Shown: positions 11,477-32,303 of the stretch, piece by piece
How positions within the stretch are numbered: the stretch's first letter is position 1
How the letters are laid out: each line of letters starts with the position of its first letter
Assembly: GCA_031420835.1 (NCBI GenBank)
Contig: JANONN010000333.1
Location: 1 to 36,460 of the forward strand
Source of the DNA: Ignavibacteriales bacterium
GTDB lineage: Bacteria; Bacteroidota; Ignavibacteria; UBA10030
Length of the DNA stretch: 36,460 nucleotides
Direction: 5' to 3'
Notes under the pieces: model-generated
Told to the model about the DNA's origin: nothing
Databases searched by the model: none
What the model saw: only the letters and a program-made list of their open reading frames with translations
Translations under genes and position numbers: made by a program

Positions 11477-11600
11477 CCATGCGCCTGCTTGAGACATGGA
11501 TGAGAACCCCCGTTATGTGCTGATGGAGTGCTTATTTCTGAACAGAATTAAATCTTGCTTCAGCTTTATGGAACTTTTCGTCCACGTCTCTTGAATTGTT

Positions 11601-12482
11601 ATGAAGAACATCCAGGATCCAATTCGAAGTTTCTTGGAAGGTCTTGAAGTAGAGCGGAACTACTCAAGGAACACCTTGCTTTCATACGAGTACGATTTGC
11701 ATCAGTTCGCTTCATCCCTTCTTCATCTCCGCATCGGCTCATATTCTAAAGTCAACAAGCAAACGCTTCGATCTTTTCTTGGCACTCTTATCGACCAAGG
11801 ATACTCAAAAAAAAGCATCGCGCGGAAGGTTGCATCGCTCCGTTCGCTCTTTAAGTTCCTGAAGCGGACCGGCATCATTGAAGGGAATCCGACATTTGGA
11901 CTTGCGCCACCGAAGATCGAGAAGCGTCTGCCAACATTCCTTGATGAACGTTCCGTGCACGCGATGTTCGATGCTTTACCGACCGATTCTCATACATCGA
12001 AACGCGATATCGCCATCCTTGAACTTCTCTACGGCACTGGAATCCGTGTCAGTGAACTGACCGGACTGAACAGAGAGGACATTGACTTTATTGACAGATC
12101 AATAAAAGTGTTGGGGAAGGGGAGCAAGCAACGCGTGATTCCCCTTGGGCGAAAGGCCTACGATGCGTTGAAAAGATATTTGGTCATGTATCAGGCAAAA
12201 ACTGTTGACCCACTGTTTGTGGGAGCGACAGACAAGAGAATCACACCGCGCACGGTGCATCGCATCGTCTCCAGGGCCATTGCGCGTGTCTCAGATCTTG
12301 AGAAGAAGAGTCCCCACGTTCTCAGGCATTCCTTTGCTACGCATTTGTTAGATCGCGGGGCGGAACTACGAGCCGTGAAGGATCTCCTCGGTCATGAAAG
12401 TCTTTCGACGACCCAAGTCTACACTCACGTGTCAACTGAACGGATGAAAAAAGCATACAAGCAAGCACACCCAAAAGCATGA
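11601..12482 (+). CDS. tyrosine site-specific recombinase, XerC/XerD family
   Basis: N-terminal SAM-like core-binding domain (LEVERNYSRNTLLSYEYDL). Catalytic motifs RVSEL, HVLRHSFATHLL and LLGHESLSTTQVYTHV. I cannot separate XerC from XerD by eye. Confidence 0.85.
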   Translation: MKNIQDPIRSFLEGLEVERNYSRNTLLSYEYDLHQFASSLLHLRIGSYSKVNKQTLRSFLGTLIDQGYSKKSIARKVASLRSLFKFLKRTGIIEGNPTFGLAPPKIEKRLPTFLDERSVHAMFDALPTDSHTSKRDIAILELLYGTGIRVSELTGLNREDIDFIDRSIKVLGKGSKQRVIPLGRKAYDALKRYLVMYQAKTVDPLFVGATDKRITPRTVHRIVSRAIARVSDLEKKSPHVLRHSFATHLLDRGAELRAVKDLLGHESLSTTQVYTHVSTERMKKAYKQAHPKA

Positions 12483-17559: not shown

Positions 17560-18699
17560 ATGAGCTGGCATAACGTCATAGGACAAACGCGCACAAAAGA
17601 GTTTCTACAACGGGCAATTGCCGCAAACCAGGTTGCGCACGCGTACCTTTTCTGTGGTCCGGTGGGAATCGGGAAGGATGCGCTTGCCATCGAGTTTGCA
17701 GGTACATTGGTTTGTACGCAGCGTGGGGCCGAAGCGTGCGGAGATTGTAGCAGTTGCAAGAAAATGCGCCATTTGCGGCATCCGAATCTCGAGTTCATTT
17801 GTGCGCTTCCGGTCGGAAAAAACGAGGAGCCTGGAGATGACCCAATCGCTGTGCTGACAGAAGAACAAGTTGCGGCTGTACAAGAGCAGCTTAAGGCGAA
17901 AGGAGAAGATCCGTATCACCGTATCTCGATAGCACGAGCAACAGTGATCAAAGTGAACAGTGTACGACAAATCCGCCGGGGAGCTTCTCTCACCGCTGTC
18001 GAAGAAGGAAGAAAGGTGTTCATAATCTCTAACGCCGAAGAGATGACACCTGTGGCCGCCAACGCTTTGCTTAAGACGCTCGAAGAGCCGCCTGCAAATA
18101 CGATGTTCCTCCTCACCTCGTCGCACAAGGATCAGCTTCTGCCAACAATCATCTCTCGCTGTCATGTCATACAGTGTGACCTATTAAGCGAAGAGGAGAT
18201 TTCGTCTGCACTTCAATCGAGAAAGAACATTGACGCAGACCCTGCCCGGTTGGCTGCAAAGCTTTCTGCGGGCAGTTACACGAAGGCAGTCGAACTAACG
18301 TCTCTCGATATTCTCGCGGAACGTCAATCTGTTGTGCACTTTCTGCGCCTTGCGCTTGGATCGAACAAGTTGGAATTGTCGAAGAGCATCGAAGAGTTTG
18401 CGAAAACTCTGAATCGAGACGCAGCTATACGATGGATGATGCTGCTTCAGGTGTGGCTGCGTGATGCTGTTCTCCTGCGAGAAGAACTTGAAAGCGGAGT
18501 TCAGAACCAAGACTTGATTGCGGACCTGAAGAGCTTCGTCACAAACTTCCCTCATGCGGATCTCGTTGGTGCAATTGGCTCGGTAGAGCGATGCATTGAT
18601 CTTGTTGACAAGAATTCCTACCTTGCTCTTGTCTTCACCACACTTGCGTTCGATTTACACAAGTATTCCTACGCAGAAAGTCTCTTCTCCTACCAATGA
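17560..18699 (+). CDS. holB: DNA polymerase III subunit delta'
   Basis: MSWHNVIGQ...AHAYLFCGPVGIGK, zinc module CGDCSSCKKM, KVFIISNAEEMTPVAANALLKTLEEPP, and IISRC. ATG 17560 is preferred to the GTG at 17509, which lies inside hairpin C. Confidence 0.85.
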   Translation: MSWHNVIGQTRTKEFLQRAIAANQVAHAYLFCGPVGIGKDALAIEFAGTLVCTQRGAEACGDCSSCKKMRHLRHPNLEFICALPVGKNEEPGDDPIAVLTEEQVAAVQEQLKAKGEDPYHRISIARATVIKVNSVRQIRRGASLTAVEEGRKVFIISNAEEMTPVAANALLKTLEEPPANTMFLLTSSHKDQLLPTIISRCHVIQCDLLSEEEISSALQSRKNIDADPARLAAKLSAGSYTKAVELTSLDILAERQSVVHFLRLALGSNKLELSKSIEEFAKTLNRDAAIRWMMLLQVWLRDAVLLREELESGVQNQDLIADLKSFVTNFPHADLVGAIGSVERCIDLVDKNSYLALVFTTLAFDLHKYSYAESLFSYQ

Positions 18700-20753
18700 C
18701 TCCCAACTTCGAACGAATTCTCGTGACCGCGGCACTGCCGTATGCAAATGGCCTTCTCCATTTGGGACATCTCGCGGGTGCCTATCTTCCGGCTGATATT
18801 TATGTTCGTTATCAACGAGCCCGCAAACGAGAAGTTCTGTTCATCTGTGGCTCTGATGAACACGGGGTTGCTATTACCGTCACTGCAGAGAAAGAAAAGA
18901 TAACCCCGCAGGAAGTGGTTGATCGGTATCATCCGTTGCACAAGGAGGCGTTTGAACAGTTTGGGATGAGTTTCGATAACTACTCGCGTACATCGCTTCC
19001 CCTTCATTATGAAACATCAAAGGAGTTTTTCACGGAGCTTCATCGTCTCGAAGTGTTGAAGATGAAGGAAGAGCAACAGCTTTACTGCGAGAAGGACCAG
19101 TTGTTCTTGGCCGATCGCTATGTGGAGGGAACGTGCCCCAACTGCAAGCATCCTCAGGCGCGCGGGGACCAGTGCGAGAATTGCGGAACATGGCTGAACC
19201 AAACGGACCTGATTGATCCGAAATGCAAAATTTGCGGGACAACGCCGGTGGTGAGAAAGACGACGCACTTATACTTTCCGCTGGGACGTTACCAGAAGAG
19301 GCTCGAAGAGTACATACACGAGCGTGCCAAGCGGGACGGCTGGAAGGAGAATGTCCTTCGCTATTGTGATAGTTGGTTCAAAGCGGGGCTGGAGGATCGC
19401 GCAGTGACTCGCGATCTCTCATGGGGCGTCCCTGTTCCTGTGAAGGGGTTTGAAACCAAAGTGCTGTATGTGTGGTTCGACGCGGTGCTCGGGTATATCT
19501 CGTCCGCAAAAGAATGGGCAGCGCAGCATTCGAAACCAGAGGAATGGCGCACCTACTGGCAGAACGAGAACACGAAATATGTTGCTTTCATCGGCAAAGA
19601 CAATGTTGTGTTCCATTGCATTGTTTTCCCGGCAATGTTGATGGCGTGGAATGACGGTGGGAGGGAGCAATATGTTCTTCCAGAAAATGTTCCCGCCAAC
19701 GAGTTTCTGAACTTCGAAGGGCAGAAGTTCTCCAAAAGCCGCGGTTGGGGGATTGATGTACGTGATTTTCTGAAGTATTTTCCAGCAGATGCGCTTCGCT
19801 ACACGCTCGCTATCAATCTGCCCGAATCGCGCGACTCGGATTTCTATTTGAAGGACTTCCAAGCTCGCACAAACAATGAGCTTGCAGCCGTTCTCGGGAA
19901 CTTCATCAATCGGACAATGGCGTTTACCGAGAAGAACTTTGGTGGCGAGGTCCCAAAAAGGTCGGAGCTAAGTTCGTTAGATCGCGAAATGATCGAGCGG
20001 CTCGAAAAGACTCCCGACGTTATCGCTGAGTGTTATGAGCGGTATAGGTTTCGCGACGGGGTCATTGAGACCATGAACTTAGCGCGCGCTGGCAATAAGT
20101 ACTTCAACGATAGCGCGCCATGGAAGACGATCAAGACTAATCCAGCTCAATGCGCAACCACTTTGAATATTTGTCTGCAGATCGTGCGCTCACTGGCCAT
20201 CCTGTTCCATCCAATTACCCCGTTTTTAGCGAAGAACGTCTGGTCGTTCTTGAACCTCTCAGAAGGCGTCGCCGAGCAACGGTGGGAAAGTGCAGGCCAA
20301 CTTCTCTTGCCGGATGACTACAAACTGAACAAGTCTGAAATTGTCGTGAGAAAAATTGAAGACAAGGAGATTGATATGATAATGAAGGAGCTTGGAATGA
20401 TTCCGGAAGTCAGCGACCAAACGAAGAACACCATCACAATTGATGATTTTAAGAAGATTGATCTTCGAGTCGCGAAGGTGCTTGCAGCCGAGAAGGTTCC
20501 AAAGTCCGAGAGACTTCTGAAGCTCCAGATCGAAATCGGCACAGAACGAAGGCAAGTCATCGCCGGTATTGCGCAGCACTATGAACCGGAAGCGCTTGTC
20601 GGTAAGTCAATCGTTGTCGTCGCGAACCTTGAGCCAGCCAAACTGATGGGGCAAGAATCACAAGGGATGTTGCTCGCCGCAAACGACAGCAACGGAAAAC
20701 TGTCTGTCGTGACAGTCCTCGGCGAGATTGCAAGCGGAAGTGTTGTTAAGTGA
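18696..20753 (+). CDS. metG: methionine--tRNA ligase with C-terminal tRNA-binding (Trbp111/EMAP-like) domain
   Basis: HIGH motif PYANGLLHLGH. Zn knuckles CPNC...CENCG...CKICG. KMSKS variant KFSKSRG. C-terminal DLRVAKVLAAEKVPKSERLLKLQIEIG. ATGA start/stop overlap with holB. Confidence 0.95.
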   Translation: MTPNFERILVTAALPYANGLLHLGHLAGAYLPADIYVRYQRARKREVLFICGSDEHGVAITVTAEKEKITPQEVVDRYHPLHKEAFEQFGMSFDNYSRTSLPLHYETSKEFFTELHRLEVLKMKEEQQLYCEKDQLFLADRYVEGTCPNCKHPQARGDQCENCGTWLNQTDLIDPKCKICGTTPVVRKTTHLYFPLGRYQKRLEEYIHERAKRDGWKENVLRYCDSWFKAGLEDRAVTRDLSWGVPVPVKGFETKVLYVWFDAVLGYISSAKEWAAQHSKPEEWRTYWQNENTKYVAFIGKDNVVFHCIVFPAMLMAWNDGGREQYVLPENVPANEFLNFEGQKFSKSRGWGIDVRDFLKYFPADALRYTLAINLPESRDSDFYLKDFQARTNNELAAVLGNFINRTMAFTEKNFGGEVPKRSELSSLDREMIERLEKTPDVIAECYERYRFRDGVIETMNLARAGNKYFNDSAPWKTIKTNPAQCATTLNICLQIVRSLAILFHPITPFLAKNVWSFLNLSEGVAEQRWESAGQLLLPDDYKLNKSEIVVRKIEDKEIDMIMKELGMIPEVSDQTKNTITIDDFKKIDLRVAKVLAAEKVPKSERLLKLQIEIGTERRQVIAGIAQHYEPEALVGKSIVVVANLEPAKLMGQESQGMLLAANDSNGKLSVVTVLGEIASGSVVK

Positions 20754-20771
20754 TTTGAGTTGACTCATGAG

Positions 20772-20821
20772 AACCTTGTCAAGGGTAACTCAGCTTGAAC
20801 CATGCTAACCTTGACAAGGTT
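20772..20821. repeat. 13-bp perfect inverted repeat with 24-nt spacer
   Basis: AACCTTGTCAAGG (20772-20784) and CCTTGACAAGGTT (20809-20821) are exact reverse complements. The repeat starts 19 nt after the metG stop. No T run follows. Confidence 0.6.
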
Positions 20822-21063
20822 GCACACTGATGGAGCCGCGCCAGTTGCCTGAACCTAAACGTCGCCCGATCGGTTTCGGGAAAGAGAAGGAGTAGCGGCG
20901 GCTCTGCTTTCTTGTATCGGTTTACCCGGTTCTACGGGGCTTGCATCTTATTGGGAATCTTAGTACCTACCTGCGACAAATCACGGGAGCCAACCATTCT
21001 TTTCACGAACATCAAACATCGCCTAACCTAAGTACAGGGGAGACTGGATTACGATTTTTCCTT

Positions 21064-21110
21064 AGCCTCTGGATTTCCGCTTCGGCGGAATGAAGGGTGC
21101 TTTTTTGTTT
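21064..21110 (+). terminator. terminator-like compound hairpin with UUCG tetraloop and T run
   Basis: TTCCGC-ttcg-GCGGAA (21075-21090) extended by AGCCTCT / AGGG(t)GCT outer pairing. T6 follows at 21101-21106. Confidence 0.55.
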
Positions 21111-21191
21111 GCGGGCGTCATTGCAGATGTTAGCTGAAATTGCCCGTAACTGATATCAAACACCAAAATACAGAAAGGATCTCACTAAGTC

Positions 21192-21335
21192 ATGAAAACT
21201 CCAAACTCTTCGTCTAGACTGTACCTCCTGGTTGTGGGCTTGCTTATCATTTATTCCGCGGCCTTCGCCGGTAAAGAAACACGCCTAACTTGCTACGATG
21301 CATTTGGGACAGCTGGAGAGCAAGTGGTATGACCC
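21192..21335 (+). CDS. possible 47-aa exported peptide (below the ORF-track cutoff)
   Basis: My translation is MKTPNSSSRLYLLVVGLLIIYSAAFAGKETRLTCYDAFGTAGEQVV*. It has a signal-peptide-like hydrophobic core followed by AFA-G. AAAGGA lies ~14 nt upstream. There is no other support. Confidence 0.25.
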
Positions 21336-21348
21336 CACAAAACCGGAC

Positions 21349-21768
21349 ATGAGAACAAACCGGATTCTCATTTGGAACATACTCGCCACAGGCCTGTTGA
21401 TAGGCTGTTTCCCCAACTTTCAAGCAACAACCATCCAGCGCGAATCAATCACCAAGAATGCAATCATGCATTCGCCTTCGAAAGCATACTTGATTGATGC
21501 GAGTGTTGTACTCTTCCCAAAAGGCTTCGTCGTTCGCGGCGACAGCGTCATTGGGACGGGATCACGTTTCTGGATTCACAGATCTGATGCACAGGATCAT
21601 CTCAGGCTCATTCCGATCGATAGTATCATTTCAATCACAGCGTATGAACCCGAAGTCTCACCCGGCAGAGGGTTCGCTGGCTTACTCCTAGGAGTCACTG
21701 GAGCGATCACGACGCCCCTGTTGATTTACACCATTCTTATAATCATATCCCCCGGTGTAGGAGATTGA
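21349..21768 (+). CDS. small lipoprotein with C-terminal hydrophobic segment, hypothetical
   Basis: Lipobox-like MRTNRILIWNILATGLLIGC. C-terminal FAGLLLGVTGAITTPLLIYTILIIISPGVG. ATG 21349 is preferred to the track start at 21298. Confidence 0.5.
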   Translation: MRTNRILIWNILATGLLIGCFPNFQATTIQRESITKNAIMHSPSKAYLIDASVVLFPKGFVVRGDSVIGTGSRFWIHRSDAQDHLRLIPIDSIISITAYEPEVSPGRGFAGLLLGVTGAITTPLLIYTILIIISPGVGD

Positions 21769-21789
21769 CACTCCCACAAGGAGTTCAAG

Positions 21790-22347
21790 GTGAAAAATTC
21801 TATCAAGCATTCTTCAACTGCCGCTTTCTTGATTCTCTTTGCTTCCTGTGGCCCATCGGAATATACCCTCAAATCGGGGGGTGACACTGCAAAGCTGAAA
21901 ACAAAAAGCGGAACAGAGTTGACCGGCGAGTTGATATGCATTCAAGACAACTCCGTTTATCTTAGTGCTGGTGAACAGAAGCCAAAAATCTTCCGCGTTG
22001 ATTTTGAGCATATCGAAGTCATTGAGGTGGAAGGGTACACAAACAGAACTTGGGTTCTACCTTGGATGCTGTTTCAGGTAGTACCTACAGTGATGCAGAC
22101 GATCATTGCGGCATCTGTAGATTTTCAAAACCCAGAAGTCTTTCTTGTTTTTGCGTTACCAACCGCCCTTACGTACGTTTTGTTTGAAACGACAACACCT
22201 GCCCCCCCGACGAGCAATCGACCAAGAACAATGGAGCATGTAGAACACTTGAAAGTACATGCCCGTTTTCCACAGGGACTTGCAGGCTTCCAACTTCAGC
22301 AGCTGCTTGAACTCAACAGACAAAATGAACCGCAAGACCTCAGGTAA
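21790..22347 (+). CDS. small lipoprotein with internal hydrophobic segments, hypothetical
   Basis: Lipobox AAFLILFASCG. AAGGAG lies 8 nt upstream of the GTG start. The architecture resembles the preceding gene: a short soluble beta-like region followed by membrane segments. Confidence 0.55.
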   Translation: MKNSIKHSSTAAFLILFASCGPSEYTLKSGGDTAKLKTKSGTELTGELICIQDNSVYLSAGEQKPKIFRVDFEHIEVIEVEGYTNRTWVLPWMLFQVVPTVMQTIIAASVDFQNPEVFLVFALPTALTYVLFETTTPAPPTSNRPRTMEHVEHLKVHARFPQGLAGFQLQQLLELNRQNEPQDLR

Positions 22348-22357
22348 GTTAGCTGCT

Positions 22358-22409
22358 CACAGTCAGGGTGAGTGAAGCTTGCTCTGAGCATGACTGTGGT
22401 TTTGTTTTT
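22358..22409 (+). terminator. rho-independent terminator-like hairpin
   Basis: CACAGTCA (22358-22365) pairs with TGACTGTG (22391-22398). Followed by GTTTTGTTTTT. Confidence 0.6.
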
Positions 22410-22499
22410 CAACAACCTTCTAAGTGAGAGATGTCCGGCGAAGAGTGCCTTACCAATCAGAACCAACTTTCTATGTCGGAATTGATGTTCTACCTTACC

Positions 22500-22528
22500 T
22501 TGCTTCCATTTCAATTTTGTCCTATATT
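22500..22528 (+). promoter_or_regulatory. sigma70-like promoter TTGCTT-17 nt-TATATT for the plus-strand mqn operon
   Basis: Hexamers at 22500-22505 and 22523-22528 with an exactly 17-nt spacer, 40 nt upstream of the mqnP TTG start. Confidence 0.4.
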
Positions 22529-22568
22529 TTGAAAACTTTTCTCCGACAAATCACTCGCAAGGCATCTG

Positions 22569-23411
22569 TTGAGTCCCATTCTGAAGTTCTTCCGTTTTGT
22601 CAAGATTGAACACACCCTCTTTTCGCTTCCCTTGATCTATAGCGGGGTCTTTCTTGCAGCAAAGGAACCGCCGTCAGGGGGGCTTATTCTGCTTGTTTTG
22701 TTGGCAGCGACAAGTGCGCGCACCGTTGCGCTTGCCCTGAACCGCATCATTGATCGTGAAATTGACCGCCGTAATCCACGAACCGCGATTCGTGAGCTGC
22801 CCAGCGGCAACATGGTTGTCTCGGAGGCTGTAGGGGTTCTGCTGGTCGGCCTTGCGTTCTATTTTCTCTCTGCCGGTCTTATTTCAACGTTCTGTCTTGT
22901 GCTTTCTCCACTTCCCTTGATGATCTTCGCTCTTTATCCCTACATGAAGCGGTTCACACCCTTGGCACATTTCGGCGTCGGATTGGGACTTGCTATGGCC
23001 CCGTTGGGTGGCTGGTTTGCGGTTCAACAATCGTTTGAGAACATCATTCCGGGCGTTCTTCTGTCAGTGTTCACGCTCTTGTGGGTAGCGGGCTTCGACA
23101 TCATCTATTCAACACTGGATGAGATGTTCGATAGGCAGGAGAATCTCTACTCTTTCAGCGCAAAGTATGGGAAGGCAAAGGCGCTCAAGATCTCTGGGGT
23201 GCTGCATGTCGCCGCGTTCGGTATTCTGGCTCTTTTGTTCGTAATATACATCAAGGCGATTGCTGCCTTGCCGTTTCTCGTTGTCTCTGGCTATCTGCTT
23301 TATCTTGAACACAAGAAAGCTGACGACGTTGAGCTCGCGTTCTTCAAGATCAATGCAGTGCTCGGATTTACAGTCTTTGGGATGGTGGTTGCCGGGGTTT
23401 ATTTTCCGTGA
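22569..23411 (+). CDS. mqnP: UbiA-family polyprenyltransferase (futalosine-route menaquinone prenyltransferase, MqnP-type)
   Basis: Multi-TM protein with NRIIDREIDRRNPRT (NxxxDxxxD) and a second Asp-rich motif DIIYSTLDEMFD. First gene of an operon with ubiX, ubiD and mqn genes. Confidence 0.8.
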   Translation: MSPILKFFRFVKIEHTLFSLPLIYSGVFLAAKEPPSGGLILLVLLAATSARTVALALNRIIDREIDRRNPRTAIRELPSGNMVVSEAVGVLLVGLAFYFLSAGLISTFCLVLSPLPLMIFALYPYMKRFTPLAHFGVGLGLAMAPLGGWFAVQQSFENIIPGVLLSVFTLLWVAGFDIIYSTLDEMFDRQENLYSFSAKYGKAKALKISGVLHVAAFGILALLFVIYIKAIAALPFLVVSGYLLYLEHKKADDVELAFFKINAVLGFTVFGMVVAGVYFP

Positions 23412-23959
23412 GAATCGTCCTCGGCATTACGGGATCATCAGGTGCGATCTATGCAAGGGAGTTTCTTCAGCAGTGCAGTGAAGAAAAGTTTCTTGTAGTG
23501 AGCAAGTGGGGAAAGGTTCTCTTGAAAGATGAACTTGGGATAACGACAAAGGACCTGCAGCCCCTCGTCAAGCGGGAGTTCTCCGATGATGATCTCACTG
23601 CGCCCTTTGCTTCCGGTTCGAACAAGTTCGATGCGTTTGTCATCCTCCCTTGTTCAACGTCAACCTTGGGGAAGATAGCTTCAGGAATAGGAGAAACCTT
23701 GATTACTCGAATCGCTCAGGTGGCACTCAAAGAACGGTTCAAGCTTGTTCTTTGCGTCAGGGAAACCCCCCTTTCGACGGTTGCTCTTGAGCAGTGTGCA
23801 AAGCTTTCCCGTGACGGTGTGGTTATCATGCCCATCTCGCCACCGCTCTATTTTGTTCCCAAGACGGTTGATGAATACGTGAGAGCGTTTGTTGATAAGG
23901 TCTTGGGCGTCATCGGTGTGAGAACGTCCAAAGGTTGGCGTTCGGAGGAGTTGGAATAA
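23408..23959 (+). CDS. ubiX: UbiX-family flavin prenyltransferase
   Basis: MRIVLGITGSSGAIYA...ILPCSTSTLGKIASGIGETLITR...RETPLS is typical of UbiX/Pad1. GTGA overlap with mqnP. Confidence 0.85.
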   Translation: MRIVLGITGSSGAIYAREFLQQCSEEKFLVVSKWGKVLLKDELGITTKDLQPLVKREFSDDDLTAPFASGSNKFDAFVILPCSTSTLGKIASGIGETLITRIAQVALKERFKLVLCVRETPLSTVALEQCAKLSRDGVVIMPISPPLYFVPKTVDEYVRAFVDKVLGVIGVRTSKGWRSEELE

Positions 23960-23975: not shown

Positions 23976-25766
23976 ATGAAGTTCCCTGCACTCGGTGAGT
24001 TTGTTCGGTACCTGGAGTCTGTTGGCGAACTTCATCGGGTGAAGGCGCCGGTTGATCCTCATCTCGAAATCACAGAGATTGCCACACGGGCGCTGAAAGA
24101 ACAAAAACCCGCTCTGCTCTTTGAAAATGTAAAAGGCTCTCACTTCCCATTAGCGATCAACGTGCTCGCGTCGCAGCGTCGGGTTGAGCTGGCGTTGGGT
24201 AAGCATCCCGACGAACTCGGCGAAGAACTCATCAATTTCGTCGAGCAAGCGATGCCGCCAAAACTCAACGTCCTGTGGCGACACCGGGCGATGGTTCGAA
24301 AGTTCCTTGCCGCCCGTCCGAAGCGAATCGCACGCGGCATCTCGCAGGAGGTCGTCGAGGAACCGAATCTCGATTCGCTTCCGATCCAGACATGTTGGCC
24401 CGAAGACGGAGGACGGTTTGTTACACTGGGACAAGTCTTCACTTACGATCCGTTAGATCAGCGACGCAATGTTGGTATCTACCGGATGCATGTGTATGAT
24501 CGACGCACGACGGGAATGCATTGGCAAATTCAGAAGGGGGGAGGATTTCATTACGCTCGCGCCGAACAACGTCAGCAAGACCTTGAGGTAGCCGTGGCGC
24601 TTGGAACCGATCCCGCTCTTTTGCTCGCGGCGGTGGCAGCATTGCCTGAAGGAATTGACGAGATTCAGTTTGCTTCGTTCTTGAGGGGTTCGCCGATTCC
24701 AATGGTCCGAGCAAAAAATCTTTCGATCGCAGTACCGGCAAATGCCGAGTTTGTGCTTGAAGGTATTGTTCCGAAAGGTGAGCGAAGAATGGAAGGACCA
24801 TTTGGAGATCACTTCGGGCATTATTCGCATGCAGCTCCGTTCCCGGTCTTTCATGTGCGCACGGTGACACATCGAAAGAATGCCATCTATCCCGCAACGG
24901 TCGTCGGCATTCCACCGATGGAGGATAAGTTTATCGGTGATGCGACACAGCAGATTCTCGGTCCACTTGCGAGAATGATCCACAAGGAAGTACGCTCCGT
25001 TTGGGCGTACTATGAAGCAGGATTTCACAATCTTCTCGTGGTTTCTGTAGAGGAGCGCTATCACAAGGAGGCGATGAAGGCCGCGCTGGGTCTGTTAGGG
25101 ACCGGGCAGCTATCATTAACGAAGTGCCTTATCCTTGTATCCGCCAAGGTTGACGTGCGTGACTGGCGCTCTGTGCTGCGTGAGATCCGAGAAAACTTCG
25201 ATCCACATTTTGATTTTGTGTTGGTTCCCAAAGTCCCACTCGATACTCTCGATTTCACGAGCTTCAAGATGGAGCTTGGAAGCAAGATGATTTTGGACGC
25301 AACAGAAAAGCCCGTCCGCATGAGCCAAAGGCTCACAAAGAAGAAGAGCGTTGGCTCGGGCCGAGTTGAGGAATACGTCAAGCGGATGGTTCAACGTGAG
25401 CATGGAATCCTTGACGCCCGGCTTGTTGATGGATGTTTGTTGCTCGTGAAGGTGCGTGGGGAAGGGCGAGGCGTTGTGGAAAAACTCGTGAAAAAGAAGG
25501 AACTTGAAGCAATCAAGATCGTGGCTGTGGTGAGTGATGATGTCAATATCCACGATCAGGAAAACTACATTTGGGGTGTGTTCACGCGTTTCGATTGCGA
25601 GCGCGATGTGGTTTTCTCAGAGCAGCGAATGATCGGCATTTCGCCGATCTACAAAGGTGTCACGGGAATTGATGCCACCTGGAAAAAAGGATACCCAAAA
25701 CCGTTGGTGATGGACAGACGCATTGTAAAGCGCGTTGACCAACGTTGGAAAGAATACTGGTCATGA
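23976..25766 (+). CDS. UbiD-family decarboxylase (menaquinone biosynthesis decarboxylase type)
   Basis: LLFENVKGS, NVGIYRMHVYD, HWQIQKGG, and EGPFGDHFGHY (UbiD E-x-G-P-F-G-D/E-H-x-G-Y motif). Sits between ubiX and the mqn genes. Confidence 0.85.
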   Translation: MKFPALGEFVRYLESVGELHRVKAPVDPHLEITEIATRALKEQKPALLFENVKGSHFPLAINVLASQRRVELALGKHPDELGEELINFVEQAMPPKLNVLWRHRAMVRKFLAARPKRIARGISQEVVEEPNLDSLPIQTCWPEDGGRFVTLGQVFTYDPLDQRRNVGIYRMHVYDRRTTGMHWQIQKGGGFHYARAEQRQQDLEVAVALGTDPALLLAAVAALPEGIDEIQFASFLRGSPIPMVRAKNLSIAVPANAEFVLEGIVPKGERRMEGPFGDHFGHYSHAAPFPVFHVRTVTHRKNAIYPATVVGIPPMEDKFIGDATQQILGPLARMIHKEVRSVWAYYEAGFHNLLVVSVEERYHKEAMKAALGLLGTGQLSLTKCLILVSAKVDVRDWRSVLREIRENFDPHFDFVLVPKVPLDTLDFTSFKMELGSKMILDATEKPVRMSQRLTKKKSVGSGRVEEYVKRMVQREHGILDARLVDGCLLLVKVRGEGRGVVEKLVKKKELEAIKIVAVVSDDVNIHDQENYIWGVFTRFDCERDVVFSEQRMIGISPIYKGVTGIDATWKKGYPKPLVMDRRIVKRVDQRWKEYWS

Positions 25767-27664
25767 CAGAATCAATTCATTTTCGTGATTCAAAGCTCGT
25801 CCCAATTTGGGAGAAGGTGCGAGCCGGCGACCGTCTTTCGAAAGAAGACGGGATAGCACTGTTCGAGTCACCTGACCTTATCTCAATCGGCAAGATGGCG
25901 CATTGGGTTCAGCGTTCCAAGAGCGGCGATGCAGTGTACTATGTGCTGAACCAGAAAATCGAGCCGACAAACATCTGCGTGCTCTCCTGCAAGTTCTGTG
26001 ACTTCGCGACAAAGGCAGGCCGTCCGGATGCATACGAAATGACGATTCATGAGATCTTGCATAAGCTCACTCCGGAGATCCATGAAGTGCACATTACGGG
26101 CGGGCTTCATCCGGATTGGGAATGGGAGTACTATCTGGAGATGCTCCGGCAGATCAAGTCTAACTTCCCGAATGTTGACATCAAAGCATTCACGGCGGTG
26201 GAGATTGACTTCTTCCACAAGAAATTCAAAATTCCGATGGAAGATGTTCTGATTCAATTGAAGGAAGCCGGCCTTCGAACAATGCCGGGGGGCGGGGCGG
26301 AGGTGTTTTCTGAGCGCGTACGACGGCTCTTGTTTAACCAGAAGATCGGCACGAAGACCTGGTTCGAAATTCACAAGACTGCTCATAGACTTGGTATCCC
26401 TTCTAATTGCACAATCCTTTACGGCCACATTGAGACGATCGAAGAGCGCGTCGTGCACATGCTGAAGGTCCGCGAAGTACAGGATGAAACCGGTGGATTT
26501 TTGAGCTTCATACCGCTTGCGTTTCAACCGGGAGATACGGGCATCAAGCCCGCGGGGCGATTCACATCCGCTATTGATGATCTAAAGATGATCGCGGTCT
26601 CGAGATTGATGCTCGATAACATTCCGCACATCAAGGCTTACTGGGTGATGCTTACGGAAGAAGTCGCATCTGTGGCTCTCAATTTTGGCGCCGATGATAT
26701 GGATGGAACGGTCGGCGGAGAGAAGATCGCTCATGACGCAGGGGCCGTCAGTCCTATGAAGCTAGCGAAAGATCACATCATCAAGATCATCAGAGATGCG
26801 GGAAAGATTCCGGTCGAGCGCGATGTCTATTATAATCCGTTGAATCTTGCTGCGGAGAATGTCATCGGAAAGATTCCTTACTTAAATTCTGTTCCGTTTT
26901 ATCAATACCTTGAACGACGGCAGTTCAAGCTCATGCCAATGTCGCCGCGACGGATGGGTGAGCTTGCAAAGAAGGGTCAGATAGATGGGGGATTGTTCTC
27001 GCTTGTTGATTATCTTCAGCAAGAGAAGAGTTTCGAACTCCTGAACTATTGCATTGCCACACGCGACCAGGTCAAGAGTGTGTTGCTGTTTTCCAACCAC
27101 GGCTGGAAGGACTTGAACGGAAAGAAGATTGGAATTACCGATGACACAGCAACTTCCGTCAAGCTCCTCAAGATCCTGCTTGAACGAAAACATGGAGTCA
27201 AAGCTCACTTCCAGCGCATGCACACCGGCGTGAACGATCTGCGGGAGTATGATGCAGTGTTGCTCATTGGCGATGAAGCGTTACGGCACAGAAAGAAGGG
27301 ACTCTCTGGATTTGAGATCGTGTACGATCTGGCAACAGAGTGGTACGAATGGCAGAATCTCCCCTTTGTCTTTGCCGTGTGGGCGATCAAGAATACTGTT
27401 TCAAAGGAGAGACGGAACGAGCTGAGATCGTTGATTTCGGCATCGCTCGAGAAAGGGGAAATGGATTTTGCCGCCGTCGGAGCGCAACATGCAAAGTCGT
27501 TAGGTCTCACGACGGGGGAAGCATCGGAGTATCTTTCGGCGTTCAATTACCGGCTCGGTGAGAGAGAGCGGGCCGCAATGGAGCTTTTCAGAACTTTGTT
27601 GCTTGAAACAGAAACTCGAAATGTTGTATCATCCGGTCAGGGAACTGAATCACTCAATGGCTGA
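25763..27664 (+). CDS. fusion protein: radical-SAM futalosine-pathway enzyme (most likely aminofutalosine synthase MqnE) plus chorismate dehydratase MqnA
   Basis: The N-terminal ~365 aa carry CVLSCKFC (CxxxCxxC), GGLHPD, MPGGGAEVF, DETGGFLSFIPLAF and FGADDMDGT (CofH/MqnC/MqnE family). The C-terminal ~265 aa begin IGKIPYLNSVPFY and contain FVFAVWA (MqnA/MqnD PF02621-like). ATGA overlap with ubiD. The MqnE versus MqnC assignment of the N-domain is inference. Confidence 0.8.
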   Translation: MTESIHFRDSKLVPIWEKVRAGDRLSKEDGIALFESPDLISIGKMAHWVQRSKSGDAVYYVLNQKIEPTNICVLSCKFCDFATKAGRPDAYEMTIHEILHKLTPEIHEVHITGGLHPDWEWEYYLEMLRQIKSNFPNVDIKAFTAVEIDFFHKKFKIPMEDVLIQLKEAGLRTMPGGGAEVFSERVRRLLFNQKIGTKTWFEIHKTAHRLGIPSNCTILYGHIETIEERVVHMLKVREVQDETGGFLSFIPLAFQPGDTGIKPAGRFTSAIDDLKMIAVSRLMLDNIPHIKAYWVMLTEEVASVALNFGADDMDGTVGGEKIAHDAGAVSPMKLAKDHIIKIIRDAGKIPVERDVYYNPLNLAAENVIGKIPYLNSVPFYQYLERRQFKLMPMSPRRMGELAKKGQIDGGLFSLVDYLQQEKSFELLNYCIATRDQVKSVLLFSNHGWKDLNGKKIGITDDTATSVKLLKILLERKHGVKAHFQRMHTGVNDLREYDAVLLIGDEALRHRKKGLSGFEIVYDLATEWYEWQNLPFVFAVWAIKNTVSKERRNELRSLISASLEKGEMDFAAVGAQHAKSLGLTTGEASEYLSAFNYRLGERERAAMELFRTLLLETETRNVVSSGQGTESLNG

Positions 27665-28532
27665 AGATATTCTCAAGAAATTAGAAGAGCTAATCAATCA
27701 AGGTACTGAACTTGCCCCGCTTGGTGGGTTCGAGTTTTCCGGATACAATGCGCGGTTGCAGAACAAGTATCTCGAATGGCGCAAGGGGTGTCTCGAAGCA
27801 CTGGAGCATGTTGGCCCGATTGGCTTTCCGCACAAAAGTAAGATTGCTGGTGACGCGAATGGAGGTTTCTTCTTTCAACCTTCTGCCCAGTTGATCTTGA
27901 ACCAGATGAAAGAGCTTCATGACAAACTGAAAGCGTCGCCCGATCTTGCGGCTGCTGCCCCAGCTCCCCCTGCAGCAACTGTGACACCTGCTTCAACGCC
28001 AGCTGCTGAAACCTCTGGTGGTGCGCGCGTCTTGAAACCACCACCAAAACCCGCTGCTGCCTCCGTGCCAGCGCCCGCGCCTCCCTCCGTGCCGGCGCCC
28101 GCGCCTGCCACTCAACCGGCTGCCGCTTCCGCGGCGGACGGCACCTTGAAAAAGATATACGTGATCGGAGAGAAAGGAGATCCACTTCGTCTCCAACTTT
28201 CTGACTTCCTGAAAGAGATTGGTTTGGAAGAGATCTCTCTCAACCGTGAGAAGGGAACGATGCTTAGTCTGGAGTCTATTGGAGATCGCACGGATGTCAA
28301 GTTTGCTTTCTTTGTTCTCAACTCTTCGGATTTGGGGTATGCCATGTTCGAGTTGGGGCACTTCGTCGGACAACTTGGGAAGAACCATGTATGCGTAGTA
28401 CACATGACCGATGTTGATTTTCCAAAGAACGTTCCCGGCGTCGTGCTCAAACCGATCGTGGTCAAGTTGGAAGAGGCAAGCTTCAGTCTCATGAAAGAAC
28501 TGAAAAACGCAGGATACAAGGTGTCGATCTAA
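27657..28532 (+). CDS. three-part protein: helical N-domain, Pro/Ala-rich linker, divergent TIR-like domain (CAP12/Pycsar-type, PF10137-like)
   Basis: The C-terminal ~125 aa (KKIYVIGEKGD...FFVLNSSDLGYAMFELGHFVGQLGKNHVCVVHMTDVDFPKNVPGVVL...LKNAGYKV) follow the PF10137 pattern (...vFIvhG...aivLLTPDD...NVifElGyFiGkLGrerVc.l....v.lPSDl.GvvY). The signature Glu is retained (FELG, GAG at 28350-28352). ATG 27657 overlaps the upstream stop (ATGGCTGA). The stop lies 1 nt before the mqnC ATG. Confidence 0.55.
   Translation: MAEDILKKLEELINQGTELAPLGGFEFSGYNARLQNKYLEWRKGCLEALEHVGPIGFPHKSKIAGDANGGFFFQPSAQLILNQMKELHDKLKASPDLAAAAPAPPAATVTPASTPAAETSGGARVLKPPPKPAAASVPAPAPPSVPAPAPATQPAAASAADGTLKKIYVIGEKGDPLRLQLSDFLKEIGLEEISLNREKGTMLSLESIGDRTDVKFAFFVLNSSDLGYAMFELGHFVGQLGKNHVCVVHMTDVDFPKNVPGVVLKPIVVKLEEASFSLMKELKNAGYKVSI
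28062..28109 (+). repeat. tandem 24-nt direct repeat (2 copies, 22/24 identical) encoding SVPAPAP(P/A)
   Basis: TCCGTGCCAGCGCCCGCGCCTCCC followed directly by TCCGTGCCGGCGCCCGCGCCTGCC, inside the Pro/Ala-rich linker. Confidence 0.9.
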
Positions 28533-28533
28533 T

Positions 28534-29676
28534 ATGACCATTGAATCAATCACGAAGAAGGTTCGATCTGCCGAACGTTTCGGCGAGTCTTCGGCGAGCT
28601 CAGCCGAGCCGCTCACGTCGAGCCGGCTCTCACCTCGTGAGGGATCATTTCTTCTTCAGAATGCTGAATTGCTTGATCTGGGCGCTTTGGCGAACGAGAT
28701 TCGATTTAAGAAGAACCCTAAGCCGTCGGTCACGTTCGTTGTCGACACAAATCCGAACTACACAAACGTTTGTAACGTCGACTGTATCTTCTGTGCTTTC
28801 TACCGGCATCCGGGAGATGAGGGGGAGTACACGTACTCTGCAGATCATATGATTCAAAAGTTCAAGGAGTCTGCCGCAGCGGGAGTCACGACAGTTCTCC
28901 TTCAAGGCGGAGTCAACCCGGCTTTGCCGTTTGAGTACTATATAGAGCTTGTCGAGCGGACCATCAAAGAAGTTCCGGAAGTTTATCCGCATTTCTTTTC
29001 AACGTCCGAGATTATTGGGATGGCGCAGGTATCCGGGCAATCGAGGAAAGAAGTTCTGGAGCGCCTTTGGAAGGCCGGGCTTCGCTCGATTCCGGGTGGT
29101 GGTGCTGAGATTCTCGCAGACCGGGTAAAGCAGAAGATCAGCAGCAAGAAGGGATCTTCAGCCGATTGGTTGAATGTCATGCGTGAAGCGCATCAGATTG
29201 GCTATCGTTCAACTGCAACGATGATGTACGGTCATCTCGAAAAGGACGAAGAGATTGTGGAACATCTCGAGAGCATCCGGGCGTTGCAGGATGAAACAGG
29301 TGGCTTTACGGCGTTCATTCCGTGGTCGTTCAAGCCGGGGAACACACCGCTCGAAAAGATTATTCCGCATTATGCCACGCCGAAGCGCTACTTGGAAATG
29401 ATTGCATTCTCCCGAATCTACTTGGACAATTTCCAGCATATTCAGGCGTCGTGGTTTTCAGAAGGGAAGAAGACAGGCCAGATTGCGTTACACTTTGGCG
29501 CCGACGATTTTGGCGGGACGCTTCTCGAAGAGAACGTACACGCGGCAGCGAACTTCGTGAACAAGACGAATACTGAAGAGTGCAAAGAGTTGATTCGTGA
29601 ATCGGGGTTTACGCCAGTGCAGAGGACAACGTTGTACGAGATTCTCCACGTTTTCGAACAGACTGCAGCAGCCTGA
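28534..29676 (+). CDS. mqnC: radical-SAM cyclic dehypoxanthinyl futalosine synthase (MqnC-type)
   Basis: VTFVVDTNPNYTNVCNVDCIFCAFYR (CxxxCxxC), LLQGGVNP, IPGGGAEIL, DETGGFTAFIPWSF, and FGADDFGGT. The choice of MqnC rather than MqnE rests on the VTFVVD-NxNYTN-type N-terminal motif and on the other paralogue being fused to MqnA. Confidence 0.75.
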   Translation: MTIESITKKVRSAERFGESSASSAEPLTSSRLSPREGSFLLQNAELLDLGALANEIRFKKNPKPSVTFVVDTNPNYTNVCNVDCIFCAFYRHPGDEGEYTYSADHMIQKFKESAAAGVTTVLLQGGVNPALPFEYYIELVERTIKEVPEVYPHFFSTSEIIGMAQVSGQSRKEVLERLWKAGLRSIPGGGAEILADRVKQKISSKKGSSADWLNVMREAHQIGYRSTATMMYGHLEKDEEIVEHLESIRALQDETGGFTAFIPWSFKPGNTPLEKIIPHYATPKRYLEMIAFSRIYLDNFQHIQASWFSEGKKTGQIALHFGADDFGGTLLEENVHAAANFVNKTNTEECKELIRESGFTPVQRTTLYEILHVFEQTAAA

Positions 29677-29679
29677 GAC

Positions 29680-30603
29680 TTACACGGAATCTACAAGTCC
29701 GGTCATGTTCTCAAAGAAGATCTTCTTCAAATCCCCAATCGGAATTCTCATCTCCTGAGTAAGCTTCAACTGATTATCAATGATGTCATACCGGTAACCA
29801 CGCGGCAACATTCCTGAATCCGACCCAAAGAGGATTCTCCCCGAACCAAACACCTGCAAGAATTTCTGGAACACTTGCCTTAAGTCCGGCTTATCGGGAT
29901 GATCCGCCATCCATGAATTCGACCCCGCAGTGTCCACATACACATTCGGACACTCTTTTCCGACCTCCAGTGTTTCTTGCATCTTGCCTGCGCCAAAATT
30001 CGGGATCACAAACTTGATTCCGGGGAATTTCTTCGTCACCGGAATCAGATCTTTCGGATTCGCGAATTGATCGTTAATGGTTGCTGGAATTCCCGCATAA
30101 TCACGAGGGCGAATATTGAGCTTACCGAACTGTACGTAGACAATTGCCTTGCATTCCTGCGCAAGGTTGTACAGTGGGTAGAGCCATTCGTCATTGACAC
30201 TAATGTGGTAAAGGGATGGATACAAAAAGAAGCCGCGAAGCTTGTCTTGCTTGAGACGCTTCTCGGCATTTTCCATGAGAACACTTGAGTTCGGGTCAAC
30301 GGTAAAGAATCCAGTAAAGCGATTTGGGAAGGCCTGCACTGCGCTGACCACAGAATCTTCATCTCCGGGCATGCTGCCGATCAGTACCACGCGTTCGATT
30401 TTCCATTTATCAATAATGTCTACCCATCGCTTTGCAAGTTGAACCGGATCTTCACCGGGAATCTCAATATGACCTTTCGCTGCAAGATTCTTTAACTCGG
30501 TGTTGATGTCGAGGCGATTCTGCTTCTGTTTTACAAGAAAACGAAAAAAAGAATTCGAATAAAAGTGAAAATGTGCATCAAATATTTTGAAGAGACCGAT
30601 CAT
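29680..30603 (-). CDS. amidohydrolase-superfamily metal-dependent hydrolase (Amidohydro_2/PF04909-like)
   Basis: N-terminal IFDAHFHF (HxH metal motif), later internal His/Asp motifs (YVDTAGS, LFGSDSG), ~307 aa TIM-barrel size. Last gene of the ubiE-mqnD operon, 13 nt after mqnD. Confidence 0.65.
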   Translation of the reverse strand: MIGLFKIFDAHFHFYSNSFFRFLVKQKQNRLDINTELKNLAAKGHIEIPGEDPVQLAKRWVDIIDKWKIERVVLIGSMPGDEDSVVSAVQAFPNRFTGFFTVDPNSSVLMENAEKRLKQDKLRGFFLYPSLYHISVNDEWLYPLYNLAQECKAIVYVQFGKLNIRPRDYAGIPATINDQFANPKDLIPVTKKFPGIKFVIPNFGAGKMQETLEVGKECPNVYVDTAGSNSWMADHPDKPDLRQVFQKFLQVFGSGRILFGSDSGMLPRGYRYDIIDNQLKLTQEMRIPIGDLKKIFFENMTGLVDSV

Positions 30604-30616: not shown

Positions 30617-31489
30617 TCAATACAACTCGATTGTTGGTACTTCTGGAATTAATCCGCGTTCCTTCCCTAATCGCAGAAGTAGCTCAATGGCTTTCTTTCC
30701 ACGGTCGCCCATATCGACCGTCAATTCACTGACGTACATCTTGACGAATTGCTCGCCGAGTTGTTTGTCGATTCCGCGTCCATACTGTAGCGCATAGGGG
30801 ATTGATTCGCGCTGGTGCGTATATCCGTAATGGATACTCTGTTTGAGCGCATCGGACAATGTGCGCGCAAGTTCTTCGCCCAGATCTTTTCTTACTACGT
30901 CGAGCCCCAGGGGAAGGGGAAGGTGATCAAACTTCTTCGCCCACAACTCACCAAAGTCGATGATCTTGTGAAAACCCTGCTCTCGATAGGTAATCTGCCC
31001 TTCATGGATGAGAAGCCCGGCATCGAACTCACCACTCGCAACACGTTCCATGATCTGATCGAATGGAATATCAATATTCTGGATGCCATCCGTGAAGATA
31101 TTGAACAACAGTGTCGCTGTCGTGAGCTTTCCGGGCGTTGCGACGGTTTTACCGCGCAACTCTTCGAGTGTCGTGTATTTCTTTGAGACGATGACGGGAC
31201 CATATCCTTCGCCCATGCTTGCACCGGTTGCCATGATCCAGTATTTGTCGGCAACGTAAGCATAAGCGTGTGCTGAAATGGCAGTCACTTCAAGCTCGCC
31301 AGTCATTGCTCGCAGATTCAGTGATTGAATATCTTCAAGCACGTGCTGAATCGCAATCCCCTCAAGCTTCACTTTCCCGCTTGAAAGTCCGTAAAACATG
31401 AATGCATCGTCAGGATCGGGGCTGTGCCCGACTCGGAGAATACGGTCTGCAACGCCTAAAGTGGAAGTTTCACTCTTTGATACCAACAT
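30617..31489 (-). CDS. mqnD: 1,4-dihydroxy-6-naphthoate synthase
   Basis: LRVGHSPDPDDAFMFYGL, LEDIQSLN, GLLIHEGQITY, LPLPLG, and YVSELTVDMGDRGKKAI closely parallel my memory of Thermus thermophilus MqnD. ATG 31489 is preferred to the TTG at 31507. It overlaps the ubiE stop by 20 nt. Confidence 0.9.
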   Translation of the reverse strand: MLVSKSETSTLGVADRILRVGHSPDPDDAFMFYGLSSGKVKLEGIAIQHVLEDIQSLNLRAMTGELEVTAISAHAYAYVADKYWIMATGASMGEGYGPVIVSKKYTTLEELRGKTVATPGKLTTATLLFNIFTDGIQNIDIPFDQIMERVASGEFDAGLLIHEGQITYREQGFHKIIDFGELWAKKFDHLPLPLGLDVVRKDLGEELARTLSDALKQSIHYGYTHQRESIPYALQYGRGIDKQLGEQFVKMYVSELTVDMGDRGKKAIELLLRLGKERGLIPEVPTIELY

Positions 31490-32303
31490 AAATTGTTGCA
31501 ATTCCAAATGTTAGTGAAAGCCGTTCTGTTTTCAAAAACCCGATTGATTGCAAGATCTCGAGAAACGTGTCGCCATCGGGAAACTGAGCGACTGTGGATG
31601 GAAGATAGGCGTAAGCCTCCTTGTCGCCTGAAATGATTCTTCCAAGCATAGGAAGAACGTAATTGAAGTAGAAACCGTACAATTGCTTGATGGGAAAGAT
31701 TCGAGGATGAGAGAACTCGAGAACCACGAGTGCACCTCCTCTGCGAAGTACGCGATGCATTTCCGAAAGACCTTTTGCAAGATCTGAAAAATTCCGCACT
31801 CCAAAAGCAACGCTCACAGCATCAAATGATTCAGTTTCGTAGGATAGCTGTTCCACTGATTGTTCTTCGAAGACAAATCTTGTCGATTTGCCGAGTTTGT
31901 CCACTTTCCGCCGGGCAATGCTGAGCATGGTCGGAGCGATGTCAATTCCGACGATCTGTTTAGGTGCCAGGGCAGCGAGAGCAATGGCCATGTCACCAGT
32001 TCCCGTAGCAACATCGAGGATACGTTTTGGAGAGTGTAGAGAAAGAACTTCGACTGCCTTCTTTCGCCAGAGGATATCGAATCCCGAGCTGAGAAAGTGA
32101 TTCAGGAAGTCGTACTGATACGCAATACGTTCAAAGAGTGATCGTACATATTCTTGATTGTACGTTGTTCGCGGATGGACGGACGAAGATCCGAGGGGCT
32201 CATTCGGCTTATCTGTGTTGTTCTTGTTCGAAGCCGTATTCTGTGGTTCGTTGGGGGAATTCGTCTGAGCGTCGATTTGATTTGTCAGTGGTAAGGTCTG
32301 CAT
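31470..32303 (-). CDS. ubiE: demethylmenaquinone / ubiquinone C-methyltransferase (UbiE/MenG, MqnG role) with N-terminal low-complexity extension
   Basis: YDFLNHFLSSGFDILWRK, SAM motif ILDVATGTGDMA, and GGALVVLEFS. The first ~45 aa are N/Q/T/P-rich, with no alternative in-frame start codon. Confidence 0.85.
   Translation of the reverse strand: MQTLPLTNQIDAQTNSPNEPQNTASNKNNTDKPNEPLGSSSVHPRTTYNQEYVRSLFERIAYQYDFLNHFLSSGFDILWRKKAVEVLSLHSPKRILDVATGTGDMAIALAALAPKQIVGIDIAPTMLSIARRKVDKLGKSTRFVFEEQSVEQLSYETESFDAVSVAFGVRNFSDLAKGLSEMHRVLRRGGALVVLEFSHPRIFPIKQLYGFYFNYVLPMLGRIISGDKEAYAYLPSTVAQFPDGDTFLEILQSIGFLKTERLSLTFGIATIYVGIKE

Follow-up and report, generated by a model that had tools for sequence, protein, structure and literature searches.

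TIR and TIR-like domains are familiar from immunity, where they serve as adaptors and as enzymes that consume nicotinamide adenine dinucleotide (NAD) or produce signals. A flavodoxin-like fold also characterises the N-glycosidases of the nucleoside 2-deoxyribosyltransferase/LOG/DNPH1 type, in which a catalytic carboxylate attacks or stabilises the ribosyl C1'. In menaquinone synthesis by the futalosine pathway, MTAN (Pfs/MtnN) or MqnB, both of the PNP_UDP_1 type (PF01048), cleaves (amino)futalosine at its N-ribosyl bond to adenine or hypoxanthine, a reaction that falls between the steps of MqnE/A and MqnC; MTAN also clears 5'-deoxyadenosine and S-adenosylhomocysteine (SAH), and PDB entries named 'aminodeoxyfutalosine nucleosidase' exist. 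Here we describe a gene for a TIR-like protein that lies within a futalosine operon on contig JANONN010000333.1 of an Ignavibacteriales bacterium (assembly GCA_031420835.1; the whole stretch of 36,460 nucleotides is referred to below as the window). The gene derives from the PF10137/PDC-S35 family, but it is domesticated, vertically inherited and of housekeeping type, not a stray defence gene, and its position in the operon is ancient. As to what it does, the best reading of the evidence, which we hold tentatively, is that it encodes an adenosyl-nucleoside N-glycosidase that would act as an analogue of MTAN and MqnB.

Architecture and kinship of the TIR-like protein

A check of reading frames and junctions on the window sequence places a 291-codon open reading frame at 27657-28532 on the forward strand, with the following parts:

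27657..28532, forward strand: gene of the TIR-like protein, 291 amino acids (N-terminal helical domain, disordered linker and PF10137-type C-domain), supported by the reading frame, homologues and the ratio of non-synonymous to synonymous substitutions (dN/dS)
27657..27941, forward strand: N-domain, residues 1-95, a four-helix bundle (AlphaFold2 model of the domain alone, predicted local distance difference test score (pLDDT) 90.5)
27957..28139, forward strand: Pro/Ala-rich disordered linker, residues 101-161 (pLDDT <50; length and sequence vary among homologues)
28026..28052, forward strand: motif RVLKPPPKP, residues 124-132, conserved within the otherwise variable linker
28149..28529, forward strand: C-domain, residues 165-291, flavodoxin-like TIR-type fold (PF10137, PDC-S35, Foldseek)
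28350..28352, forward strand: GAG codon of Glu232 in the motif MFELGHF, counterpart of the catalytic Glu of TIR NADases (invariant; aligns to FEFG of CAP12)

An AlphaFold2 model of the full protein, built with 30 orthologues, contains helices over residues 2-93, a stretch with pLDDT below 50 at residues 101-161 and a beta-alpha-beta domain at residues 166-284 with pLDDT of 81-93. This bears out the layout of helical N-domain, linker and C-domain that an earlier, sequence-only reading of the window had proposed. That reading had recognised no motif in the N-domain, and the domain indeed gave no Pfam, NCBIfam or PADLOC match, nor did its model, with pLDDT 90.5, find a significant fold match in the PDB. 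It is an anonymous four-helix bundle, with G16, P21, G23, G24, Y30, N31, Q35, W41 and R42 as its invariant residues.

The C-domain had been called TIR-like on the pattern of PF10137 ('CAP12/Pycsar effector protein, TIR domain'), and three lines of evidence uphold that call. Residues 167-265 match PF10137 with 33.4 bits (E 5e-8) when the whole protein is searched, and the C-domain alone scores 36.8 bits, both above the gathering score of 24.7. The top Foldseek matches of the C-domain in the PDB are the electron cryo-microscopy structures of TIR-STING/CAP12 (9lmq/9lmr; E 2.4e-4 to 2e-3). Finally, the signature Glu that had been read from GAG at 28350-28352 is kept: Glu232 aligns with the CAP12 residue in a shared FE(L/F)G motif, on a common flavodoxin-like fold. 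No match to the nucleoside 2-deoxyribosyltransferase, LOG or DNPH1 families was obtained in Pfam at E up to 10, and none was among the top 50 Foldseek hits in the PDB. We also considered a flavodoxin-like electron donor to the two radical S-adenosylmethionine (SAM) enzymes of the operon; this was rejected, as the motif of the loop that binds flavin mononucleotide is absent and the top matches are of TIR type.

In several respects the window protein differs from CAP12 and PycTIR. It has neither a STING or other cyclic-nucleotide sensor domain nor a cyclase partner, and its gene is vertically inherited in a biosynthetic operon, outside defence islands; none of the contextual features of CBASS or Pycsar effectors, or of PDC-S35-type defence genes, applies to it. 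The catalytic site is changed as well. Where canonical relatives have VIHGRD (V.HGxx) in beta1, the window protein has VIGEKGD, and the long TPDD...R.R.N loop ahead of the FELG motif is deleted; alignment with the canonical proteins P0140, P0139, P0234 and P0243 thus confirms both the altered xHG motif and the shortened loop before the Glu that had been noted from the window itself.

The closest profile of all is that of PDC-S35, a candidate single-gene defence system in PADLOC, whose models match the C-domain at E 2e-18; PycTIR and the CBASS TIR effectors are matched weakly. Only the C-terminal half of the PDC-S35 profile (approximately positions 110 to 260) aligns to the window protein, which differs further in its inserted disordered linker of ~60 residues, in the lost catalytic-site loops and in its fixed genomic context. 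The kinship nevertheless extends to the N-domain, for which homology to a subset of PDC-S35-type proteins becomes visible through the family profile. In P0140, P0139, P0234 and P0243 the same N-domain is fused to canonical PF10137 domains (VFVIHGRD ... LLTPDD ... PRARQNVIFELGYF), and two of these, P0140 and P0139, are strong PDC-S35 matches (E ~1e-67) with the same two-domain architecture. These canonical relatives are located in unrelated, variable genomic contexts. No paper mentioning PDC-S35 was found in the literature searched.

More than 400 full-length homologues were found, with 58-84% identity among those listed and aligned, and their source names, where given, are metagenome-assembled genomes (MAGs) of Ignavibacteria or 'Bacteroidota'. 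An exhaustive profile search over 1.84 billion representative proteins returned the main family as essentially one cluster at 50% identity, together with two sister subfamilies, S1 (which includes P0125, P0285 and P0357) and S2 (which includes P0382, P0367, P0132, P0134 and P0136). Precomputed annotation assigns PF10137 to 120 of 120 orthologues among the matches listed and to none of the S2 proteins. The residues P21, G23, G24, Y30, N31, Q35, W41 and R42 of the N-domain are invariant across the main family, the sister subfamilies and the canonical fusions. Judged from these alignments, the window protein is a derived member of an old two-domain architecture, in which a long linker was gained, the HG motif and the R-x-R-x-N loop were lost and the Glu was kept. 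In one homologous locus (L073, ~10000-10430), a fragment matching residues 1-127 with 65% identity immediately precedes the full-length copy, perhaps as a partial duplication or an assembly artefact.

Position and selection across relatives

The distribution of the gene was followed in one genome per GTDB species, which gave 74 main-family loci, all from Ignavibacteria-type MAGs, onto which the window proteins were mapped. Contexts were counted in the 55 loci that are flanked on either side by 1.5 kb or more. The order MqnA-[gene]-MqnC was found in 38 of them; a second arrangement, MetRS-[gene]-Amidohydro_2(-), termed type B, occurred in nine, with ubiE(-) next wherever the contig was long enough; in three a MenA-like prenyltransferase preceded [gene]-MqnC, and five had other arrangements. 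The two sister subfamilies, which are 27-45% identical, were followed through five look-ups and 31 metagenome loci. Every informative locus among these has the order UbiA-UbiX-UbiD-MqnE::MqnA-[gene]-MqnC, although these loci have no metG in the vicinity and differ from the main family in their outer flanks. The placement between MqnE/A and MqnC that had been seen in the window is therefore conserved in 38/55 main-family loci and in all informative loci of the sister subfamilies. Overall, the context of the orthologues is fixed and syntenic in ~110 loci, whereas that of the canonical relatives varies. We conclude that the operon position is ancient and predates the divergence of the Ignavibacteria-type lineages that carry it.

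The junctions themselves are less constant. In the window, the ATG at 27657-27659 sits within ATGGCTGA, which also holds the TGA (27662-27664) that ends the upstream frame of 639 codons, and the TAA at 28530-28532 is followed by a single base and then by the ATG of the next frame at 28534. The 291-residue frame, its overlap with the stop of mqnE-mqnA and the 1-nucleotide gap to mqnC are thus as first described. The public gene call is longer (303 amino acids), with an ATG at 27621, 12 codons upstream. Since the homologues all begin at the MAE/MSE position in the alignment, we favour the start at 27657. The overlap of start and stop codons is not kept in relatives, which have spacers of 14-60 nucleotides between MqnE::MqnA and the TIR-like gene. 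Because of this, the idea that the gene is hard-wired into the operon and incapable of independent expression would apply at most to this contig. Promoter and terminator scans of the window gave counts at the level of shuffled sequence and are uninformative for this phylum.

The TIR-like gene evolves under strong constraint. Values of dN/dS lie between 0.02 and 0.2 for both folded domains and in loci of every context type, and Glu232, R197, D225, E272 and E273, together with the signature residues of the N-domain, are invariant in 71/71 orthologues from all context types. Within the linker, the motif RVLKPPPKP is conserved in the main family (R124 in 68, P128 in 71, P129 in 70 and K131 in 70 of 71) and is not conserved in the sister subfamilies.

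These data bear on whether the protein might still be a NAD+-degrading TIR effector, either a single-gene abortive-infection or toxin module of the PDC-S35 type or a NAD-consuming checkpoint, that happens to reside in a quinone operon. The kinship set out above speaks for it, as PDC-S35 and the PycTIR and CBASS TIR effectors are the closest profiles, the same N-domain occurs in canonical PDC-S35-type proteins and the Glu is kept. Nevertheless, we consider an effector of this kind very unlikely. The orthologues are single-copy, syntenic, restricted to one taxon and under strong purifying selection across the whole class, whereas the canonical relatives are patchy and occur in variable contexts; the motifs conserved in active relatives are lost; and the gene resembles its neighbours in GC content, with no defence genes nearby. 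As the sequence-only reading had stated, family scans of the 36-kb window revealed no cyclase, STING, SAVED or CARF partner, nor any other defence gene, and no CBASS or Pycsar partners were found in the related loci. Since PDC-S35-type proteins elsewhere combine the same N-domain with canonical PF10137 domains, the gene is best described as a domesticated derivative of that family. A TIR-like clade long fixed in a cofactor-biosynthesis operon, under strong purifying selection, would demonstrate that the fold has been taken over for core metabolism as well.

A different explanation for the fixed position is that the gene has a housekeeping role unrelated to menaquinone: it would be the most positionally stable gene of a holB-metG-...-gene region that quinone genes have entered and left, and its membership of the operon would reflect inheritance. 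Consistent with this, all main-family loci with sufficient flanking sequence have holB-metG upstream, the gene comes immediately after metG in 13 loci, with gaps of 0-120 nucleotides, and purifying selection continues without mqn neighbours. However, the sister subfamilies, which lack a nearby metG, still have MqnE::MqnA-[gene]-MqnC in every informative locus. Moreover, loci of types C and D keep the gene next to MqnC or the MenA-like prenyltransferase, and those of type B keep it near ubiE. On balance we regard a function outside menaquinone synthesis as unlikely.

The MenA-like prenyltransferase found in one clade (297 amino acids; L032 8946-9839, L011 8636-9529 and L062 10873-11766) deserves separate mention. 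Its best NCBIfam matches are models for 1,4-dihydroxy-2-naphthoate polyprenyltransferase, all below their cut-offs. It replaces the UbiA/UbiX/UbiD/MqnE::A block beside the TIR-like gene, and MqnC stays in L011, L014 and L050, which suggests a hybrid or rearranged menaquinone pathway. In L011, a MAG with a complete chromosome, MqnC (10860-11956) is split into frames of 273 and 92 amino acids. A decaying pseudogene was considered here and rejected, since the 92-residue frame restores the full length; the split is probably a frameshift or assembly error and was not used.

A candidate nucleosidase and its alternatives

The genes that surround the TIR-like gene in the window are as follows:

18696..20753, forward strand: metG (methionyl-tRNA synthetase, MetRS), the upstream syntenic anchor, which directly abuts the TIR-like gene where mqn genes are absent (Pfam)
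22569-23411, forward strand: UbiA-type MqnP (NCBIfam MqnP-type and TIGR01475 matches)
23408-23959, forward strand: UbiX-type protein (PF02441)
23976-25766, forward strand: UbiD-type decarboxylase (TIGR03701, 526.5 bits, above cut-off)
25745..27664, forward strand: MqnE::MqnA fusion, 639 amino acids (TIGR03700 and PF02621)
28534..29676, forward strand: MqnC, cyclic dehypoxanthinyl futalosine synthase (TIGR03699, 458.5 bits, cut-off 428.1)
29680..30603, reverse strand: Amidohydro_2 (PF04909) protein (Pfam, E 4e-21)
30617..31507, reverse strand: second PF02621 protein, putatively MqnD (Pfam, E 1.8e-71)
31470..32303, reverse strand: UbiE/MenG-type (MqnG) methyltransferase (TIGR01934, 251.6 bits)

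In the fusion protein, the aminofutalosine synthase model TIGR03700 covers residues 21-365 (479.6 bits, cut-off 434.55) and PF02621 covers residues 374-618. The cluster accounts for all other steps of the pathway, namely MqnA, MqnE, MqnC and MqnD, the UbiA/UbiX/UbiD-type MqnP/L/M, and UbiE/MqnG. Searches with Pfam, NCBIfam and tblastn with E. coli MtnN detected no PNP_UDP_1-type nucleosidase in the cluster or in the 36-kb window. The reported absence of MqnB and MTAN from the cluster is thereby confirmed for the cluster and the window, a result that says nothing about the whole genome. In the window and the related loci fetched, ~1.6 Mb in total, tblastn gave chance hits to MTAN only, the query being the E. 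coli protein and not an MTAN from Ignavibacteria.

The nucleosidase reading would assign this step to the TIR-like protein. Glu232 of the C-domain would supply the carboxylate for hydrolysis of a ribosyl N-glycosidic bond, a chemistry typical of the fold, and loss of the beta1 HG motif and of the R-x-R-x-N loop would direct the site to non-phosphorylated adenosyl nucleosides arising from the SAM-using neighbours. Indeed, the loop losses relative to canonical PF10137 proteins could fit such a change of substrate. The first candidate is aminofutalosine, which would be split into dehypoxanthinyl futalosine and adenine in the step between MqnE and MqnC. Since the neighbours MqnE, MqnC and UbiE all use SAM, 5'-deoxyadenosine and/or SAH are probable further substrates, and the protein would then be a functional analogue of MTAN and MqnB, with its four-helix N-domain possibly serving assembly or regulation. 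The likeness to those enzymes would lie in reaction and pathway position only; their fold and sequence are unrelated, and the window protein has no similarity to PF01048 or MTAN.

A role confined to the hydrolysis of futalosines is difficult to reconcile with the type-B loci. In at least four lineages all mqn genes are gone from the locus, and the TIR-like gene, Amidohydro_2 and ubiE are kept, with purifying selection persisting. UbiA/X/D-MqnE::A, MqnC and MqnD are missing through three separate clean gaps of ~20-280 nucleotides, and in these short intergenic gaps no remnants of mqn genes were detectable. The arrangement appears at no fewer than four separate places on the trees of both the TIR-like protein and MetRS, the count of independent losses being read from the topology of these two neighbour-joining trees. 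Such repeated, precise removal looks like loss of the pathway with three genes retained, and not like relocation. Because the gene outlasts the mqn genes at its locus, its role is not exclusively futalosine hydrolysis, unless the mqn genes lie elsewhere in the genome. A broader, MTAN-like role would explain its retention next to ubiE after the loss. The original nucleosidase proposal appears plausible, in need of broadening to cover loci without mqn genes. Ignavibacterium album is reported to possess the classical men genes as a complete set (PMC3362086), so that both menaquinone pathways occur in the class.

Retention without mqn genes is also the first of several points that weigh against a nucleosidase, since it needs an extra assumption, either MTAN-like breadth or mqn genes elsewhere. 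MTAN or MqnB is normally encoded away from the mqn genes, and the step may therefore not be missing at all. The proposal itself draws only on the setting of the gene in the operon and on the chemistry of its fold. TIR-STING is a modest structural match that leads by a small margin, with generic receiver and flavodoxin-like folds next. A pathway enzyme would not usually have a four-helix N-domain together with a disordered linker of 60 residues that carries a conserved proline motif. The TIR-like protein also diverges faster than its operon neighbours: between subfamilies it is 36-41% identical, compared with 77-84% for MqnE, 66-79% for MqnC and 55-65% for MqnA. Finally, subfamily S2 has Ala at the position of the canonical Glu. 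In these S2 proteins an invariant Glu precedes that position by three residues, within the same predicted helix, and P0366 and P0130 carry both Glu residues and are plausible intermediates. To judge from the alignment, this pattern suggests that the carboxylate has moved and that the site has not been lost, and hence selection for a carboxylate there.

Much of this evidence could be read in another way, in which the protein is a non-catalytic accessory of menaquinone synthesis. Its degenerate TIR-like domain would bind a nucleotide or nucleoside (NAD, a SAM-derived adenosyl compound or a pathway intermediate), its N-domain and linker would make protein contacts, and the whole would act as a scaffold, chaperone or regulator for the radical-SAM enzymes or for the late membrane steps of either pathway. 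The lost HG motif and R-x-R-x-N loop, the missing canonical Glu of S2 and the fast divergence relative to the flanking enzymes would all accord with such a protein. Across the superfamily as a whole, no part is better conserved than its N-domain, its disordered linker carries the conserved RVLKPPPKP, and it persists where mqn genes are absent, beside ubiE and in some genomes beside the MenA-like prenyltransferase. On the other hand, Glu232 is invariant in 71/71 orthologues and the S2 carboxylate appears relocated, not gone; Pfam and fold searches recognised no known interaction domain, and no precedent was found in the literature searched. We regard an accessory role as possible, if somewhat doubtful. 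Should the protein prove not to be catalytic, it would represent a new accessory factor of menaquinone synthesis.

We return to the nucleosidase reading and to what it would imply for the origin of the enzyme. In its most specific form, a TIR-fold protein derived from anti-phage NADase effectors was recruited as the (amino)futalosine/5'-deoxyadenosine nucleosidase of Ignavibacteria-type bacteria, in a non-orthologous displacement of MTAN/MqnB. We offer this scenario with reserve, as one that may well not hold. If true, it would provide the first case of a TIR-type domain that serves biosynthetic housekeeping and acts on a purine nucleoside; in the literature searched, no paper connected a TIR-like or PF10137 protein with the synthesis of menaquinone. 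A nucleosidase here would fill the unassigned step of the cluster and constitute a third, unrelated solution after MqnB and MTAN. The case is directly testable either way, as substrates and complementation hosts are well established.

Members of PF02578 (YfiH/PgeF, 'Cu-oxidase_4') have reported purine-nucleoside phosphorylase, methylthioadenosine phosphorylase and adenosine deaminase activities. A PF02578 gene lies ~1-2 kb beyond ubiE in genomes with subfamily S2 (the P0382 locus; L083 10122-10814). In those genomes its product could be another candidate for cleaving nucleosides, or the gene may equally belong to the adjacent pyrimidine genes.

Other features of the window and its cluster

Several further features of the cluster were apparent. 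The fusion of MqnE with a PF02621 domain joins consecutive steps and is kept in all related loci, the fused domain being assigned to MqnA rather than MqnD by inference only. The listed TTG start of MqnE::MqnA overlaps ubiD by 22 nucleotides, and translation may in fact begin at an ATG seven codons further in (MTESIHF). The Amidohydro_2 protein, encoded between mqnC and the MqnD-like gene, gave no match in NCBIfam and only a marginal sequence match in the PDB (3cjp, E 0.007); in the sister lineages its place is taken by a PF13748 (ABC_membrane_3) protein or is empty.

In the window, metG is separated from the UbiA-type gene by a spacer of 1.8 kb (20754-22568), compared with ~50-160 nucleotides in close relatives such as L001, L002 and L047. 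It contains a near-repeat pair, accttgtcaagg / accttgacaagg, at ~20773-20820 that has no Rfam match, and two open reading frames, 21298-21768 (156 amino acids) and 21790-22347 (185 amino acids), without Pfam or PADLOC matches and with hydrophobic or lipoprotein-like N-termini.

Outside the cluster, all window reading frames of at least 150 amino acids were scanned, and those with an assigned family are housekeeping genes: topoisomerase I, HPr kinase, BamA, holB, metG and TonB receptors. Rfam and tRNA scans of the window found no RNA genes. Directly after topoisomerase I, at 11601-12482, lies a tyrosine recombinase (Phage_integrase with a SAM-like N-domain); no mobile element is evident, and it is most likely a housekeeping enzyme of the XerC/D type.

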